Source: a virus (taxonomy: Duplodnaviria; Heunggongvirae; Uroviricota; Caudoviricetes). Taken from it: a stretch of 64,000 nucleotides of DNA. The stretch lies in the IMG/VR virus record IMGVR_UViG_2681813318_000003. One strand, given 5' to 3'. A program made the position numbers and the translations under genes. Below, piece after piece: positions 10,568 to 51,430 of this stretch; position 1 is the first letter of the stretch; each line of letters opens with the position of its first letter. The notes under the pieces are model-generated. The model ran no database searches. It worked only from the letters and a program-made list of their open reading frames with translations, and was not told where the DNA came from.

Positions 10568-11100
10568 TATGCTGTCAGCGGTGAAATGTATGCTATCAGC
10601 GGCTATTTTTCTGAAAAGTATGCTGTGAACGGTTAAAGATATGCTACCAGCGGTATAGTGAGATAAACGTATGCTGTGAGCGGTAAATCATCTATCACCA
10701 CTCAATGCTCTGGCATACCTCCCCAGTGGTTACTAACCTCGAAGAGTGCATTCCATATAGGTTTGCGCTCACTAACATTCTATTGCCGTTGCGCTGATTG
10801 CTTGTAGTGAAAGGCATTTATTGCCTGCTGCTCCCTGATAGAACGTATGCTGTCAGCGGTGTTTTATTGAGGAATTTTTGTTTGGATATGCTATCAGCGG
10901 TAATTAATGGTATATGTCAGACCTTCGTATGCTGCCAGCGGTAATTTTGTTCTGGTTATAACCATACCGGTACACATTATTCATGCAATGTCTTAAGTAT
11001 GCTGTCAGCGGTAAAAAATCGAGTAAAGTATGCTGTGAGCGGTGAGATAAACTCTCGATATGCTATCAGCGGTAATTGATTGTGTATGCTGTCAGCGGTG
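10568..11100 (+). repeat. downstream iteron array (about 12 direct repeats in two blocks), likely copy-control locus
   Basis: GTATGCT(G/A)(T/C)(C/G)AGCGGT copies at about 10568, 10588, 10618, 10640, 10669, then 10845, 10886, 10927, 10997, 11028, 11058, 11084; all same orientation; first copy abuts rep stop. Confidence 0.8.
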
Positions 11101-11146
11101 ACGACTATGAAATATGACTGCGGCACGTGCCGCAGTCAGTTTGCAT

Positions 11147-11359
11147 TTAGTGTATTTTCTTTAACAGACCCCAAAGTGTTCCGGCTTTTGTAGTCAGTTT
11201 TCCTGTTTCTGGATCGTACATACGCCATTCACGCCGCTGGTGGACGATATACCCATCTTCACGTTCCAGACGCTCAAGAATGCCAGGCTGCTTGAAACCC
11301 TTAGCACGCCAGTAGCCGCTTGTTTTCTCGATTTCCAGACCTGCCAGTGTTAATGCCAT
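11147..11359 (-). CDS. hypothetical protein
   Basis: 70 aa ORF abutting the next gene upstream. Confidence 0.45.
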   Translation of the reverse strand: MALTLAGLEIEKTSGYWRAKGFKQPGILERLEREDGYIVHQRREWRMYDPETGKLTTKAGTLWGLLKKIH

Positions 11360-11694
11360 TATCCAACCTCCTTGCAGTCATCGAAAAGGTAGCTTTGCTG
11401 AGAAGCGTGAACGCCATAGAAGCCCTTGTATTTGTTGTATACGAAGTGGTCTTCTCCGACGCCGGTTAATTTGCCATTACGGTTTGTGAGATATGGGGAT
11501 GACAATACTCGATCGTCACGCACTACATAGAACTGGTCGCCGCTGTCTACGACCATCGCGCCATATGGTGCTTTTATGACGTCGGTAAAAGCGCCATTCT
11601 TAATGTCGGCTACAGACATTTCACACTGATAAACAGTGGTGTCGGCCACAACGATCGAAGAAAGGAACAACAAAGCGAATGGGATGGCCTTCAT
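11359..11694 (-). CDS. hypothetical secreted protein
   Basis: 111 aa; N-terminal signal-peptide-like hydrophobic segment (MKAIPFALLFLSSIVVA). Confidence 0.55.
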   Translation of the reverse strand: MKAIPFALLFLSSIVVADTTVYQCEMSVADIKNGAFTDVIKAPYGAMVVDSGDQFYVVRDDRVLSSPYLTNRNGKLTGVGEDHFVYNKYKGFYGVHASQQSYLFDDCKEVG

Positions 11695-11870
11695 GCTGCC
11701 ACCTCTTTGATTACATCAAATGCTGAATTAAATACGAGCACGATAGCCAAAGCGTTTATGACTACTTCGTTCACCGGGGAAAATACTTTACGAATGACAC
11801 CAGTGAAAATGCAGTCGATGACAAAAGCTATTGACACGATGAGTAACAAGTATTCAATAAAAATCTTCAT
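11691..11870 (-). CDS. small hydrophobic membrane protein (59 aa)
   Basis: Manual translation MKIFIEYLLLIVSIAFVIDCIF...; stop overlaps the downstream start (ATGA coupling); below the track length cutoff. Confidence 0.4.
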   Translation of the reverse strand: MKIFIEYLLLIVSIAFVIDCIFTGVIRKVFSPVNEVVINALAIVLVFNSAFDVIKEVAA

Positions 11871-11909
11871 GATAGGTAGATACTAACTTATATAAATTTT
11901 ACTGTAAAC

Positions 11910-12185
11910 TCACTCAAAAGTGCTGATGCTTAAAATACGCTCAAGATGTGCGGCATCTTCATCACTGATTTGTTGAGTCTCTTCTACGTACCAACAGTTG
12001 CCGTTATGCCAACAAACACCATCATCATCAACCATCACTGAATCAGCGTCATGACCTGTATATTCAACGAGAATGTGCTGGATCAGCGCGTCAGTTTCTT
12101 CGTCGTTAAGGCCATCGGCTTTGACCATAAAAAGCGGAAACACGTCATAGACAGTGCTGGTAACGATTCGAACTAAAACTCTCAT
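11910..12185 (-). CDS. hypothetical acidic protein
   Basis: 91 aa, Asp/Glu-rich; conserved RBS-start motif at 12183-12205. Confidence 0.55.
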   Translation of the reverse strand: MRVLVRIVTSTVYDVFPLFMVKADGLNDEETDALIQHILVEYTGHDADSVMVDDDGVCWHNGNCWYVEETQQISDEDAAHLERILSISTFE

Positions 12186-12240
12186 GTGTTTTTCCTTTTG
12201 TGGTTAGTGTTTACTTATTTTGTTAGTTATGAATAGGCGA

Positions 12241-12666
12241 TCAATCTTCTTGTTTAGGGAAAAACTGTTCAATAACTCTGTCAACGGCTGTGTCTATATG
12301 GAGTAGATGCCACACAACCATATCTTTGCTTCCCATGCCTTGTGTGAATATCACGTCATACTTACGCCATGCGCAGTGGAACCAATATGCTGAGTCATCA
12401 ATTGGTAAATCCTCTCCCGCCTCTTTGAAGTATTTCAGCAGCATTGCCTGCTCTGCCGTTGGCGTTGGACCTATTTCCTGAGCGTACATACGGATGAATC
12501 GCTGCCAGTCTGTCTCGTCGGGGGTTGGATCTGGTGGGGTCATTTCTGCGATAGCGTTTCGTAGCTGATGCGCCCAATCAGGTTCAGGAAAGCCTTTTGC
12601 TACTTCATCATCAATAACATCCAGAGCCACGTTTGCGGCATCGTAGAGTTTCTTAATAGCTGTCAT
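12241..12666 (-). CDS. hypothetical acidic protein
   Basis: 141 aa; preceded by AAACAA-N-TTGTTT palindrome and AAGGA RBS. Confidence 0.55.
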   Translation of the reverse strand: MTAIKKLYDAANVALDVIDDEVAKGFPEPDWAHQLRNAIAEMTPPDPTPDETDWQRFIRMYAQEIGPTPTAEQAMLLKYFKEAGEDLPIDDSAYWFHCAWRKYDVIFTQGMGSKDMVVWHLLHIDTAVDRVIEQFFPKQED

Positions 12667-12715
12667 GTTTTCTTATCCTTTTAAACAAATTGTTTTCTTA
12701 ATAAGATAATTGCGA

Positions 12716-12741
12716 TAAAAAAGGCGTCCAACTGGACGCCT
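12716..12741 (-). terminator. rho-independent terminator (GGCGTCC/GGACGCC hairpin)
   Basis: Stem 12723-12729 / 12734-12740, loop AACT; T-run on the minus strand (A-run 12716-12722 on plus); follows stop of the SPFH gene. Confidence 0.7.
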
Positions 12742-12757
12742 GAACTTTTTAGGGGAG

Positions 12758-13588
12758 TTATTTCACTGTAATGAAAGGAGTGTTAGCCCCTTGAGTCATG
12801 TACTGCGGTAACTGGCCATTCCATTTATTGATGGCTTCCAGTTCCATAACGTTCGGGTTTTGACGCAGAGCTTCACCGCGCAGACGAATGGCGTCTGCTT
12901 CTGCTTGCGCACGAGCACGGATAGCATCAGCTTCACCATTAGCCTGTTCACGTAGCATATTCGCCTCAGCTTTACGTTGTTCAACTTCCTGCTGACGTTG
13001 CAGAGTACGCTGGTTAGCCGTTACTTTGGCGTTAATAGATTCAATGACAGTTTTTGGGTAATCAGGCTTTCCAACCCATGACAGGCTCAGTACCTCAATA
13101 CCAACCGGAGACATCTCTTTCTGAATATCTTTCAGTGCGTTGTCCAGCAATTGTGCCTTACCACCGTCGATAAATGAGTCAGTGGTCATACGGCTGGCCA
13201 AACGGTTTAGAGAGTCGGCAATTTTCTGACGCAGATCTGATTCGGTGATATCGTCTACGCCTTTGCGATAGGTCTGGAACACCGTCGTTACCTTGTCACG
13301 ATTAACCAGATACGCAACGCCAATTTTGTGACCAATAGCAGTACCGTCACTCATCTGGAATGTGAACGGCTCGTCGTAGGTCTTCATTTGTTTGAAGGTC
13401 GGGAATACGTAAAGTTCGGTGTTAAGACCTGTCCATTGGCGACCAACGCCAACCACTTCACCAATCCCTTTGTCTTCACCTAATTTGTTTACTTTGATGC
13501 CAACGTATCCAGGCTCCACGCGATCGCAGCCAGTAAGACCCATTGTGCAAATAGCCGCCAGAGCAACTGCAAGTAAACCTTTCTTCAT
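12758..13588 (-). CDS. SPFH/band-7 (prohibitin/HflC-like) domain lipoprotein
   Basis: 276 aa; lipobox LTGC after signal peptide; coiled-coil Ala/Glu/Arg-rich segment and C-terminal ...NVMELEAINKW... resembling HflK/HflC-type SPFH proteins (from memory). Confidence 0.55.
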   Translation of the reverse strand: MKKGLLAVALAAICTMGLTGCDRVEPGYVGIKVNKLGEDKGIGEVVGVGRQWTGLNTELYVFPTFKQMKTYDEPFTFQMSDGTAIGHKIGVAYLVNRDKVTTVFQTYRKGVDDITESDLRQKIADSLNRLASRMTTDSFIDGGKAQLLDNALKDIQKEMSPVGIEVLSLSWVGKPDYPKTVIESINAKVTANQRTLQRQQEVEQRKAEANMLREQANGEADAIRARAQAEADAIRLRGEALRQNPNVMELEAINKWNGQLPQYMTQGANTPFITVK

Positions 13589-13591
13589 TAC

Positions 13592-13792
13592 TTATTTCCC
13601 CTTTGCTTTGATTAATGAGTTGATAAACTTACGACCAGCAATAAGACCGATTACAGGAGCACCAAAACCAACGATAACTCCAAACATGACGGCTAAATCA
13701 CTCTTGGTAGAAATCAGCGACGGAACCAGTAAACCGTAGATGAGAGCCACTGAAAGGCCTGTGGCTACTGCCAATAGATAGATTTTGATCAT
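13592..13792 (-). CDS. small two-helix membrane protein
   Basis: 66 aa, two hydrophobic helices; immediately upstream of the SPFH gene (possible membrane partner); conserved RBS-start motif. Confidence 0.5.
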   Translation of the reverse strand: MIKIYLLAVATGLSVALIYGLLVPSLISTKSDLAVMFGVIVGFGAPVIGLIAGRKFINSLIKAKGK

Positions 13793-13855
13793 GTGTTTTC
13801 CTATGTGGTTGTTATGCGAAAATAATAAGTAAGTACTTATATATTTTCAAGAGAT

Positions 13856-13878
13856 AAAAAAGGCGTCCTGTGGACGCC
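13856..13878 (-). terminator. rho-independent terminator (GGCGTCC TGT GGACGCC)
   Basis: Perfect 7 bp stem 13862-13868 / 13872-13878 with T-run on the minus strand; directly after the RecA-like gene stop. Confidence 0.7.
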
Positions 13879-13884
13879 TTGTGT

Positions 13885-14958
13885 TTACTCTTCTACTGAC
13901 TCGGTGGGGTTGTCTTTTGCTCTTCGGTCGTCGATTGCCTGCAAAGCCGCAATGATTTCAGCCAGTGGCTTCTCCCGATACATCTCGACGATCTGCGATT
14001 TGGTGTATTTCTTGTCACCAATTTCAACTCGCCCGCTGGCGTTCTTTGGCAGGTATCCTTCTTCCAGCATGTACTCGACGAGCGATTCGATAACGTCGAG
14101 GCCACGAGTAGGATCGAAGTAGAATTTCCAGGTGCATTTGCCATACGGTGGTGCAACTTTGTTTTTGATGCATTCTGCGCCTACGTCCTGGCCGATCTTC
14201 TCTTTACCATCCTTCATTACCGATGCACCAAGACGGATACGTACAGAAGCGTAGAACTTCGGTGAATCTCCACCTGGCGACGTAGTAGGGTCGCCAAACA
14301 TTACACCGATTTTTGTGCGAACCTGATTCAAGAAGATGATGCAGGCGTTGTATTTGCGTGCCCACAAAGCCAGAGTAGGGAAGTTCGCACTTGTCGCACG
14401 AGCCAGTGCCGTATTGTCGTTCATGTTTAGCTGATCTTTGTCTTTGGCAGTGCCTTCAGCCATCTTTTCGAACTTCTCGGCTTTGGTGTTCGGAACCATA
14501 GACGCAAGTGAGTCAGCCACGATACAGATAGGTGCTGATTCAGGGATAAGCTCTTCATCACGTACCAATTTAAGTATTGTGCCGATCAACTCTACAGAGT
14601 CTTCGAAGGTGTCAGGCTGCTTGTATACCCACTGACCGTCATCCTCATCTGCGTTCAGGCCATTGGCTACAGCCAGGCCAACGTCAAAACTGTTTTCATG
14701 ATCGAGGAATACCGCCAGACCATCTTGTTTTTGAGCGGAGATCATCGCTGCTGTCGCAAGGAACGTTTTCCCTGCACTTGGAGGACCGAATACTTCGACG
14801 ATACGACCACATGGGAAGCCGCCATCGTAACGACCGGAAATAGCTTTGTTTAACGGTGGAAAGCCTGTATCAATCCAATGAGTTACTTTCTGAATTTCGT
14901 CGTTGCTACCGATTTTCTTTTTCAGAGCAAGTGCCAGTGCGGATTTTCCTTTTGCCAT
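13885..14958 (-). CDS. RecA/UvsX-family recombinase
   Basis: 357 aa; GRIVEVFGPPSAGKT Walker A and IIFLNQVRTKIGVMFGDPTTSPGGDSPKFYASVRIRLG, colinear with the E. coli RecA core. Confidence 0.88.
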   Translation of the reverse strand: MAKGKSALALALKKKIGSNDEIQKVTHWIDTGFPPLNKAISGRYDGGFPCGRIVEVFGPPSAGKTFLATAAMISAQKQDGLAVFLDHENSFDVGLAVANGLNADEDDGQWVYKQPDTFEDSVELIGTILKLVRDEELIPESAPICIVADSLASMVPNTKAEKFEKMAEGTAKDKDQLNMNDNTALARATSANFPTLALWARKYNACIIFLNQVRTKIGVMFGDPTTSPGGDSPKFYASVRIRLGASVMKDGKEKIGQDVGAECIKNKVAPPYGKCTWKFYFDPTRGLDVIESLVEYMLEEGYLPKNASGRVEIGDKKYTKSQIVEMYREKPLAEIIAALQAIDDRRAKDNPTESVEE

Positions 14959-14960
14959 GA

Positions 14961-15233
14961 TCAGGCTCCTTTTGTTTCGTTGATTCGTTTTAAAGCGGCG
15001 GATTCGTCGAATACAATCGCATCGTGATTAAGGAGTCTGGATACACGAGCGAGGATTTTTACGACCTGCTCGCTGACTAATCCAAACTCGCGATCTGTCG
15101 CTTTCATTCCGGCAGCGCCCAGAATTGACGGCAGTGCGATGACAGCGTACTCACCGTGATAAAAGACAATCTCTTTTGCCAGTTGGGTGGGGGTGGTTGT
15201 AGCGCCATTAATAATCGATTTAAGCATTAGCAA
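14961..15233 (-). CDS. hypothetical protein
   Basis: 90 aa ORF tightly packed between recombinase and flap endonuclease genes. Confidence 0.5.
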   Translation of the reverse strand: MLMLKSIINGATTTPTQLAKEIVFYHGEYAVIALPSILGAAGMKATDREFGLVSEQVVKILARVSRLLNHDAIVFDESAALKRINETKGA

Positions 15234-16171
15234 TACCTTTCGAATGGAAGAACAAACACTTCAAGGTCTTCAAGGAACGAACGGAAATTCAGCTCGTAGC
15301 ACAGTTGCTCGAATGCTTTCACGTCACGATTGCCTTTGATTGTTTCGATTTCGGTAGGCGGAAACTTCGTCTCAATCAGGTTCATTAGCGTGATGTTTCT
15401 CTTGAACGCTTCGAGCATTCGACAGCCTGTTTTCTCGTTGAAGGCATTCTTCGCTAGTTTGTTGAAGGCGGTCTTATGGCGTCCTTTGTCAACCACGATT
15501 GAGCCGTCGTTGATGCCGCGTACCATCGTTGCGACACTTCCCCATTCATGCAGCAGCTCTTTCGCACCGCCAGCACCAATGCCACCAACACCGCTAATGT
15601 TGTCCGATTTATCGCCTTGTAATGCTTTTGCTTCCAAAAATGCGCGAGGAGTAGCGAATCCTGTCAGCTCCGCAAATTGCTCAAAATTAACCTGCTTGTT
15701 TTTGGCGTCTTCGCGCAGGCTTACCCAGCTTACGTTTTCGCGAACTAACTGAAGCCAGTCGCTATCGCCTGTTAACAGATAGATGTGTTCAACGGTTGGC
15801 TGCGCTGCCATGCGGGATACCAGCAGCCCGGCCAGATCATCCGCTTCTGCATCTTTTGCAATGAGTTGGGTAACTCCAAGCGCGGTCATCATTTTGAGGA
15901 TGTATGGCTTCTGGATAGCAAAGCCTTCCTTCATCTTTTTCATATCAGGATCGTCGTCGCGATTTGCTTTGTAGTCCGGGTAAAAGTCGCGACGCTTGTC
16001 ACTAAATCCATCCCAAAGAATCATAGGTCGGGCATGGAGGATGGAGGCATAACGACGGACGTTCTTAACAAAGCCGAAAGCAGCCTGTACTTCCATTTCG
16101 CCGTTGTGCAATTTGTCAGATTGTTGGTGGTAATAACCCAGGCTATTGCCATCTACGAAGAGATAATTCAC
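15227..16171 (-). CDS. 5'-3' exonuclease / flap endonuclease (FEN, RNase H-like)
   Basis: H3TH-like motif QGDKSDNISGVGGIGAGGAKELL and acidic clusters. Start moved to GTG at 16169-16171 (VNYLFVDGNSLG..., GGAAGGAA RBS) because the track start at 16222 would place a terminator hairpin inside the ORF. Confidence 0.8.
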   Translation of the reverse strand: MNYLFVDGNSLGYYHQQSDKLHNGEMEVQAAFGFVKNVRRYASILHARPMILWDGFSDKRRDFYPDYKANRDDDPDMKKMKEGFAIQKPYILKMMTALGVTQLIAKDAEADDLAGLLVSRMAAQPTVEHIYLLTGDSDWLQLVRENVSWVSLREDAKNKQVNFEQFAELTGFATPRAFLEAKALQGDKSDNISGVGGIGAGGAKELLHEWGSVATMVRGINDGSIVVDKGRHKTAFNKLAKNAFNEKTGCRMLEAFKRNITLMNLIETKFPPTEIETIKGNRDVKAFEQLCYELNFRSFLEDLEVFVLPFERYC

Positions 16172-25638: not shown

Positions 25639-26025
25639 ATGTCTGATAACAAGATTGAATTTATAGAAAGTCGCTACGCTGCTTTTATCGCAGGGTTGAT
25701 TGAATCCTCACCTATGAGCCAGGCCCAGATAGCCAAAACAATTGGGTATAAAAACGCCAACAACCTTTCTTTAATTAAAAGCGGCAAAATTCCTTTGCCT
25801 ATCGATAAGGTTCGTCCGCTGGCGCTGGCACTGGGTATTGAGCCAAGTCGTCTTATGATGATGGTGCTGGAAGAACGCCAACCCGAACTCGCAGCATTTT
25901 TATACAAAGAAGGCACTGCTCCTCTTAACGAGGACGAAAAACAGGTTCTTGCTGCATATAACGAGCGATTCGGTAAAGAGAAAGGCGCATCACAAAAGGT
26001 TGTTGAGGCCATAAAGTCTCTATGA
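25639..26025 (+). CDS. XRE-family helix-turn-helix transcriptional regulator (candidate repressor)
   Basis: 128 aa; HTH segment MSQAQIAKTIGYKNANNLSLIKSGK; AAAGG RBS; divergent 250 bp control region upstream containing a GGTAAGCACTTACC palindrome. Confidence 0.65.
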   Translation: MSDNKIEFIESRYAAFIAGLIESSPMSQAQIAKTIGYKNANNLSLIKSGKIPLPIDKVRPLALALGIEPSRLMMMVLEERQPELAAFLYKEGTAPLNEDEKQVLAAYNERFGKEKGASQKVVEAIKSL

Positions 26026-51338: not shown

Positions 51339-51430
51339 GTTGAATATGCTCCTTGATTTGGTGGGCTATCCTTGCCCACCATTAAGTATGTACATACTTA
51401 TTTTTACCGATATAAATATTTTTTTCTACA

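Follow-up and report, generated by a model that had tools for sequence, protein, structure and literature searches.

The window, a stretch of 64,000 nucleotides from a tailed virus (Caudoviricetes; IMG/VR record IMGVR_UViG_2681813318_000003), carries on its minus strand a pair of genes, hereafter called the cassette, encoding a two-helix membrane protein of 66 amino acids (the partner) and a lipoprotein of 276 amino acids with an SPFH/Band-7 domain. The two genes make up a transcription unit of their own in an SSU5-like phage-plasmid, and the pair is a conserved, tightly linked module present in many unrelated phages of Proteobacteria, temperate as well as strictly virulent. Its probable target during infection is the cell envelope, and not the lysis-lysogeny decision. 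The features of the locus, in window coordinates, are the following.

12722..12741, minus strand: downstream intrinsic terminator, 8-bp stem with 6 GC pairs and a T-run (-15.1 kcal/mol, z -5.1)
12758..13588, minus strand: SPFH/Band-7 lipoprotein, 276 amino acids (PF01145; phrog_200, E=3e-108)
13526..13588, minus strand: codons of the signal peptide and lipobox, MKKGLLAVALAAICTMGLTGC and then DR, with Cys21 in the lipobox L-T-G-C
13592..13792, minus strand: two-helix inner-membrane protein, 66 amino acids (phrog_1130, E=2.1e-25; hydropathy)
13822..13850, minus strand: predicted sigma-70-type promoter, TTGAAA, 17-nt spacer, TATTAT, 10 of 12 consensus matches
13830..13839, no strand: perfect 10-bp palindrome TAAGTACTTA inside the promoter spacer, a candidate regulator site
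13860..13880, minus strand: upstream intrinsic terminator, 9-bp stem with 6 GC pairs and a T-run (-14.7 kcal/mol, z -6.6)

The open reading frame (ORF) of the lipoprotein lies downstream of that of the partner, which starts at 13792 as read from the sequence; the two are in the same frame and separated by 3 nt. The first-pass annotation had placed a two-helix membrane protein of 66 amino acids ahead of the lipoprotein and strong terminators on either side of the pair. The ORFs and hydropathy agree with the first of these statements, and the terminators were recovered as hairpins with T-runs on the coding strand, neither hairpin being equalled in folding by any of 200 shuffled sequences. The upstream terminator is predicted to end the RecA-like gene at 13885-14958 and to insulate the cassette, and the predicted promoter lies between this terminator and the first ATG of the cassette. 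Such a promoter and terminator of its own (one predicted promoter, two hairpins) are features of a moron. Both hairpins and the promoter are retained in Salmonella phage SSU5 and in the Yersinia pestis plasmid pMT1. The window, SSU5 and pMT1 share an identical 27-bp promoter block, CTTGAAAATATATAAGTACTTACTTAT, next to which the 5' untranslated region diverges; the -10 hexamer varies at its fourth base alone (TATTAT or TATCAT). The upstream terminator shows a compensatory double change, from GGCGTCC/GGACGCC to GGCGCCC/GGGCGCC, in one relative (L020) and in pMT1. No RNA family was found in an Rfam search of 11000-15500. In GC content the cassette does not stand out from the genes around it, and its composition thus gives no hint of recent import.

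The larger product had been described earlier as a lipoprotein with an SPFH-type C-terminal region. A hidden Markov model check for Band_7 (PF01145) supported the SPFH identity, with 106.2 bits against a cut-off of 23.6 and E=2.6e-30 over residues 23-209, and the signal peptide with the lipobox LTGC at Cys21 supported the lipoprotein assignment, whereas the C-terminal placement did not stand, since the domain covers nearly all of the mature protein. The protein consists of the signal peptide and lipobox (1-21), the SPFH domain (about 23-209), a helix (179-243) which the domain partly overlaps, and a C-terminal tail. It belongs to PHROG 200 ('lipoprotein') and is labelled 'SPFH domain-containing protein' in RefSeq. 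The gene itself is ordinary, a plain member of families annotated in hundreds of genomes, and the locus falls in the same sequence class as the phage families PHROG 200 and PHROG 1130, being a plain member of both.

An AlphaFold2 model of the monomer, based on an alignment of 118 diverse homologues, had a mean predicted local distance difference test (pLDDT) score of 81.6. In the model, strands occupy 21-95 and 164-176; helices occupy 97-162 and, as a single helix of 65 residues, 179-243; the tail is of low confidence, and the C-terminal 17 residues score below 50. Whole-chain comparison with Foldseek gave full-length HflC, HflK, erlin-1/2, prohibitin-1/2, stomatin and flotillin, with a probability of 1.00, and also QmcA, at E values from 3e-13 to 6e-8 and identities of about 15-18%; the HflC/HflK match was 7vhq_G (E=3.3e-13) and the QmcA match 8z5g_A (E=6.2e-8). 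When the sequences of solved structures were searched, the single protein found HflK (E=0.007), and a profile found prohibitin-2, HflC, QmcA and HflK at 1e-7 to 1e-5. No named cellular SPFH subfamily is preferred by the matches to the model. The full-chain matches and the modelled fold indicate the architecture of ring- or cage-forming SPFH proteins, i.e. an SPFH domain, a wall helix of about 65 residues and a conserved C-terminal tail, outside any named cellular subfamily. The tail, K255-W256-x-G258-x-x-P261 ... P271-F272, is the most conserved part beyond the fold, and would correspond by its position to the cap segment of SPFH cages.

The N-terminus, with MKK, a hydrophobic stretch and LTGC, fits the lipobox [LVI][ASTVI][GAS]C. 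The lipobox Cys is present in 113 of the 118 homologues, LTGC being the commonest box, and 57 of the 113 Cys-bearing homologues have Asp or Glu at +2. Among the Cys-bearing sequences with at least 70% identity, 23 of 24 have Asp-Arg after the Cys, and those in the 45-70% group mostly have Glu-Arg. Asp at +2 classically marks an E. coli lipoprotein as one that stays in the inner membrane. Two variants, P0002 and P0005 (95-96% identical), read ...MGIIGYDRVEPG, with MGIIGYDR replacing MGLTGCDR, and have lost the lipobox Cys while retaining the hydrophobic N-terminus. P0005 was found on 175 contigs and is a common natural variant, and three more distant homologues also have an N-terminal helix without a Cys. 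A lipid anchor could sensibly be exchanged for an uncleaved helix only in a protein that works at the inner membrane. From the Asp at +2 and the Cys-less variants with an N-terminal membrane anchor, we infer that the lipoprotein is anchored in the inner membrane and faces the periplasm, in an orientation like that of HflK/C.

The hydrophobic helices of the partner span about 4-22 and 33-51; a Lys stands close to the N-terminus, and the tail, RKFINSLIKAKGK, is basic. By the positive-inside rule, the Lys and the basic tail predict an N-in/C-in topology, with a periplasmic loop of 6-8 residues and the tail in the cytoplasm. The protein belongs to PHROG 1130 ('membrane protein') and to no Pfam family. 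NfeD, raised in the first-pass annotation as a family to search for, was rejected, since five diverse members gave no Pfam match even at E<=10 and the protein is too short to hold an OB-fold domain. A profile search of 1.8 billion representative proteins gave 15 relatives, all of 43-97 amino acids except one of 865 amino acids with five matched stretches, and these matches gave no indication that the partner is part of some larger domain protein.

The partner is tied to the SPFH gene in position. In 80 IMG/VR loci, in which the lipoprotein was 76-100% identical, a two-helix ORF of 62-72 amino acids lay directly upstream of the SPFH gene in 78, the other two loci having remnants of it, and the junctions were a 3-nt gap, a 1-nt overlap or an ATGA overlap. 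A tblastn search of phages with the 66 amino acid protein recovered SSU5-type copies alone, BLAST being too insensitive for a short hydrophobic query, and distant partners were recognised from the ORFs found ahead of the individual SPFH genes. The partner precedes the SPFH gene in 14 of the 19 lineages read. These include the P2-like phage P88, the N4-like phages KpCHEMY26 and Stenotrophomonas phage Paxi, prophages of Salmonella and Pseudomonas chlororaphis, Vibrio phage CKB-S1, Pseudomonas phage vB_Pae_U2, the T7-like Desulfovibrio phage ProddE and Burkholderia phage vB_PR1; in the rV5-like phage PVP-SE1 one gene lies between the two. Overlaps of 4 nt were found in phiP27, P88, KpCHEMY26 and prophages. 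In phiP27 (NC_003356; L003 2316-2504) the partner has 62 amino acids, overlaps the start of L05 by 4 nt and is unannotated in the reference record.

Eighteen diverse partners could be aligned with a mean identity of 31%. Pro24 is invariant and Ser28 and Gly38 are conserved in at least 90%, so that the window's P24-x-L-I-S28, located at the end of helix 1 and in the periplasmic loop, appears across the 18 partners as P-x-[LM]-[IVF]-S. Comparison with Cyrano, the pLF82 phage-plasmid of E. coli LF82 (partner at L001 6992-7192), showed 100% identity over the 831 nt of the SPFH gene and 79.6% nucleotide identity over the 201 nt of the partner gene, with 18 amino acid changes. The recombination breakpoint between the window and Cyrano is the gene junction, and other E. 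coli phage-plasmids have chimeric partner alleles. An identical SPFH gene beside diverged or chimeric alleles suggests that the partner diversifies and recombines independently, with the loop motif kept. By these comparisons of sequence the partner is a conserved non-NfeD family tied to the SPFH gene, which goes beyond the existing annotation.

The lipoprotein was found by tblastn in 413 phage records. Temperate carriers include P88, phiP27, Stx2a phages and Burkholderia phages. Carriers judged from taxonomy to be strictly virulent include N4-like Schitoviridae, rV5-like Seunavirus, LUZ24-like Bruynoghevirus, Felix-O1-like Kolesnikvirus, Autographiviridae ProddE, phiCbK, Lak megaphages and crAss-like phages. 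Further examples of the family are phiP27 L05, P88 gp12/gp11, SSU5_062/061 and PVP-SE1 gp117 (gene 118), as well as N4 gp20, the last solely as cited in an annotation note of PVP-SE1. In the loci read, the pair sits among early or DNA-metabolism genes and never beside an endolysin gene. Its neighbours are RecA-like and RepA genes in the window, genes for a single-stranded-DNA-binding protein and PolA in the Salmonella prophage, and DNA polymerase in CKB-S1, ProddE and phiEa104. The pair is embedded in early operons in P88, phiP27, N4-like phages and prophages, and has its own promoter and terminators in the SSU5 type. A distant homologue, 29% identical and closest to the phiCbK type, was also found in the chromosome of Asticcacaulis sp. 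(L093 5001-5873), inside a flagellar cluster (fliP, fliO, flgB, flgC, fliE, fliM).

The palindrome in the promoter spacer belongs to a motif with the consensus (G)ATAAGTA-N-TACTTA(T) and sites of about 10-18 bp, which in the window is almost exclusively intergenic. With at most one mismatch there were 6 sites in the whole window, all intergenic, against 1.5 expected, and with at most two mismatches 23 of 38 matches lay within the intergenic 7.3% of the window. Motif positions are 3205, 7947, 13830, 17350, 22936, 25535, 25596, 31916, 35275, 40542, 43063, 51387 and 58299; a second perfect copy, TAAGTATGTACATACTTA, is at about 51383-51400, and copies lie upstream of many minus-strand genes. Two are directly upstream of a helix-turn-helix regulator gene (25639-26025), which adjoins an integrase gene and is the counterpart of the 'putative repressor' CYRAN_45 of Cyrano. 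One possibility is that the motif serves SSU5-type phage-plasmids as a scattered operator or promoter element, much as C1 operators are dispersed in P1. Its resemblance to a phage-wide element suggests that the phage's own regulatory circuit probably includes the cassette.

Expression was assessed from published RNA-seq data of Cyrano (PMC9928086, S1 Table), i.e. for the orthologues CYRAN_56/57 and not for the window element itself. In lysogens grown overnight in lysogeny broth (LB), CYRAN_56 was at the detection floor (log2 2.32) and CYRAN_57 near background (log2 3.0-4.3), whereas both reached log2 7.25-7.7 inside macrophages at 6 h. The flanking genes remained near background there (RecA log2 3.5-4.2, CYRAN_58 2.3-4.2), and since the pair rises while its flanks do not, the unit is transcribed on its own; ordinary lysogens keep it silent, and it can be turned on. 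The pair is absent from the list of 13 Cyrano morons given in the same paper. In the published data CYRAN_60-62 also rose alongside the SPFH pair, from the LB floor to log2 8.3-9.0 in macrophages. Their counterparts in the window are three small minus-strand ORFs at 11147-11870, encoding a 59 amino acid two-helix membrane protein, a secreted-looking protein of 111 amino acids and a protein of 70 amino acids, the Cyrano counterpart of which is annotated 'P1 Cra protein'.

The locus has the gene order of SPFH-NfeD operons, and its lipoprotein the predicted orientation of HflK/C, yet by the defining tests it belongs to neither. Like HflK and HflC, the lipoprotein has an SPFH domain, a long wall helix, a C-terminal cap segment and a predicted position at the inner membrane, on its periplasmic side. 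The identity is, however, only about 17%, and in place of a K/C paralogue pair with N-terminal helix anchors the phage has a single gene with a lipid anchor, paired with a 66 amino acid hairpin protein. Orthology to HflC or HflK was rejected, the scores being 30.2 bits against a cut-off of 134.4 for TIGR01932 (HflC) and 18.7 against 159.4 for TIGR01933 (HflK), with one SPFH gene in the locus. The SPFH-NfeD operons QmcA-YbbJ, YqiK-YqiJ and archaeal stomatin PH1511-PH1510 similarly have a gene for a membrane partner directly upstream of the SPFH gene and coupled to it. The SPFH domain is cytoplasmic in QmcA and YqiK, whereas that of the phage protein is predicted to be periplasmic and the phage partner is without NfeD or OB-fold. 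FliL, the ring of which surrounds the flagellar stator, is comparable as an inner-membrane-anchored periplasmic SPFH-type ring, the ring being predicted in the case of the phage lipoprotein, and the Asticcacaulis homologue lies in a flagellar cluster. FliL differs in having no lipobox, being described in PMC13644372 as a single-transmembrane protein, and the phage lipoprotein had no match to the FliL family.

The best explanation overall, which we hold tentatively, is that the pair is an envelope-acting module of the lytic programme, most likely for superinfection exclusion. Its parts do not have the same strength. There is little doubt about the molecular identity of the products and about the module; an envelope function in the lytic programme is somewhat favoured by the observations; and exclusion of superinfecting phage DNA specifically, to which analogy points, is doubtful. 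The lipoprotein would oligomerise and cover a patch of the inner membrane with a ring or dome, facing the periplasm as HflK/C does. The helices of the partner would either supply the membrane-spanning part, which HflK/C have in cis, or be the enclosed client, and the partner would contact the lipoprotein through its conserved periplasmic P-x-L-I-S loop. The module would belong to the early or lytic programme and not to lysogenic maintenance, and would act at the envelope, shielding the inner membrane of the infected cell against the entry of DNA from superinfecting phages.

Membrane-based exclusion had been offered as an alternative in the first-pass annotation, and it is the plausible reading favoured here, because the genes are accessory, early, envelope-located and mobile, the partner alleles diversify, and exclusion by early membrane proteins or lipoproteins is well known. 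Early membrane proteins of exclusion include T4 Imm and Sp, the TP-J34 lipoprotein Ltp, T5 Llp and the Cor protein of phi80 and N15. They too are small, accessory, envelope-located and mobile, are expressed early or from their own promoter, and several are lipoproteins. Unlike the phage lipoprotein, none is an SPFH protein, and no sequence or fold relationship to them was found, nor would one be expected; the analogy to them is one of proposed function.

A more specific form of this proposal, to which we give a low probability, is that the pair is a minimal, self-sufficient 'caged membrane patch' device, taken by phages from host to host, in which a homo-oligomeric periplasmic SPFH dome, held to the inner membrane by its lipid, would enclose an oligomer of the 66 amino acid protein and gate what crosses it. 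Such gating may block the DNA-entry route of rival phages or restrain a holin-like pore. If true, a viral SPFH protein would for the first time have a defined function, the partner would represent a new class of SPFH partner distinct from NfeD, and an arms race with incoming phages would account for the diverged partner alleles next to an SPFH gene that is identical.

Several observations weigh against the best explanation. The lipoprotein occurs without an upstream partner in phages TL, phiEa104, phiCbK and phiM6 and in the chromosomal Asticcacaulis copy, where no small partner is called upstream and none is evident in a three-frame translation of the gap. Homologues outside enterics have Ser, Gly or Thr at +2, and retention in the inner membrane is assigned by rule. 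Neither protein matched the defence models of PADLOC-DB v2 at E<=0.1. The increase of the Cyrano pair in macrophages at 6 h, about 8- to 40-fold with the flanks at background, also fits a conditional function in lysogens. The literature searched consisted of annotations and speculation and reported no experiments with members of the module; one paper suggests that a phage SPFH gene may aid adsorption or DNA entry and states that the reason 'remains unclear' (PMC13239085, 2026).

Among the other explanations, a buffer against membrane stress has a minor but appreciable probability. The cage would in this case stabilise or repair the inner membrane, aid the quality control of phage membrane proteins and preserve the proton-motive force until lysis, perhaps in a manner analogous to the Psp response or to QmcA as a suppressor. 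SPFH proteins are generally tied to membrane organisation and quality control, and the full cage-type architecture, the early or middle gene position in virulent phages and the induction of the Cyrano pair under intramacrophage stress are consistent with such a role. It would, however, leave the diverged partner alleles (79.6% at the nucleotide level) beside a 100% identical SPFH gene unexplained, and hosts already have HflK/C, QmcA and YqiK.

It is unlikely that the pair is a moron, i.e. a gene of lysogenic conversion which the prophage would express under host-associated stress and which would benefit the bacterial host, with an effect on survival or virulence, for example as a TLR1/2-stimulating lipoprotein. 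The anatomy is the classic one, with an own promoter between two terminators, but in other phages the pair lies within early operons without its own promoter, and the family is abundant in virulent phages, which never lysogenise. CYRAN_56/57 reached log2 7.3-7.7 in macrophages at 6 h, with neighbours at 3-4, yet the pair was at the detection floor in LB lysogens and was not called a moron by the authors (PMC9928086). A possibly related, HflK/C-like SPFH protein of a Pasteurella multocida prophage has been reported as a TLR1/2-dependent virulence factor (PMC9872710), and Y. pestis pMT1 carries an intact cassette; stimulation of TLR2 is, on the other hand, generic to triacylated lipoproteins.

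The first-pass annotation had proposed that the SPFH protein could tune FtsH-dependent turnover of the element's own regulators and with it the lysis-lysogeny decision. In this explanation a phage SPFH ring would mimic or compete with HflK/C and cage or free FtsH. We consider it quite improbable, as no positive evidence for it was found and the idea is weakened by the occurrence of the family in strictly virulent phages, where it is common and which make no lysogeny decision, and by the Cyrano orthologues being at the floor in LB lysogens. The predicted topology, with a periplasmic SPFH domain on the inner membrane, is that of HflK/C, and HflC/HflK rank among the best matches by structure (7vhq_G) and by sequence in the PDB; erlin, prohibitin and stomatin fit the model just as well, however, so that nothing is specific to HflK/C, and the equivalog scores are far below their cut-offs. 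There is a single SPFH gene, with no paralogue pair and no N-terminal transmembrane helix, and the published contact of HflK Arg191 with FtsH maps ambiguously onto the lipoprotein at about 17% identity. That a phage-encoded HflC 'could help drive lysogeny' has been put forward as speculation for a Burkholderia phage gene (PMC10269572).

A holin-like pore formed by the partner and held or timed by the SPFH ring, as a lysis clock or for abortive exclusion, is very unlikely: the partner has the gross features of a class II holin or pinholin (small size, two transmembrane helices, a charged, basic C-terminus), the genes are tightly coupled, and periplasmic SPFH or SPFH-like rings do enclose inner-membrane complexes, HflK/C enclosing FtsH and FliL forming a stator-associated ring in the periplasm, but in the loci read the pair lacks the endolysin-adjacent position of a lysis cassette, and it has no holin family match in Pfam or PHROGs. 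Cyrano has a separate holin-endolysin-Rz/Rz1 cassette (CYRAN_22-25) after the tail-fibre gene, as by synteny does the window, so that the SPFH pair is not the lysis cassette, and the 66 amino acid protein was ruled out as the phage's holin.

The wider interest lies in the SPFH proteins themselves. The structures of SPFH cages (HflK/C, prohibitin, stomatin, flotillin, erlin) have been solved since 2022, and their effect on the enclosed membrane is debated. Phages spread a compact version with one SPFH gene, a lipid anchor and a partner of 60-70 residues. The module is also present in many phages used in therapy (N4-like, rV5-like, LUZ24-like), in pMT1 of Y. pestis and in phage-plasmids that occur in some 4% of the complete genomes of E. 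coli. With two genes, dispensability for the plasmid and a conserved motif which can be mutated, it is tractable both for phage biology, such as exclusion, the timing of lysis and the protection of membranes, and for the general SPFH question. The gene itself being already annotated, it is the conserved non-NfeD partner and the lipid anchor that make the module a moderately interesting and very tractable case.

The near-identical E. coli phage-plasmids and the SSU5 and pMT1 copies assign the window, by sequence comparison, to the SSU5-type phage-plasmids, and the cassette to the conserved backbone of that lineage. A 1.4-kb stretch containing the cassette had 99% identity to Escherichia phage CMS-2020a and 94-96% to PhiR41_1 and Cyrano, and was found at a coverage of at least 80% in 195 of 5426 complete E. 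coli genomes, mostly in plasmids of about 110 kb. Cyrano encodes an SPFH protein identical to that of the window, and many E. coli phage-plasmids carry a near-identical pair. Y. pestis pMT1 carries the intact cassette with 79% identity, and Salmonella phage SSU5 also carries the whole unit. In the E. coli plasmid pLR4-105k (L095), remnants of an IS91-family transposase occupy the site of the cassette beside the RecA-like gene, and a fragment of the small gene is left; as pLR4-105k persists as a plasmid after this loss, the cassette is dispensable for plasmid maintenance.

The pair is positioned between the RecA-like gene and a DUF7238 gene, in a DNA-metabolism module with nrdAB, thymidylate synthase, SbcCD-like, RepA/RepB, RecA-like, exonuclease, gp32-like single-stranded-DNA-binding protein and DnaE genes. 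The downstream neighbour, at 12241-12666, encodes a DUF7238/PHROG 1451 protein (E=5e-38). It is a conserved neighbour in the E. coli relatives and is frameshifted in pG749_2, and SSU5 has a gene annotated as DUF2591 instead. The RecA/UvsX-like gene at 13885-14958 encodes 357 amino acids in the window and 779 amino acids in Cyrano, and in several RefSeq plasmids this position is annotated 'LAGLIDADG family homing endonuclease'. From the difference in length and this annotation, relatives appear to carry an intein or homing-endonuclease insertion in the RecA-like gene, without a counterpart in the window.

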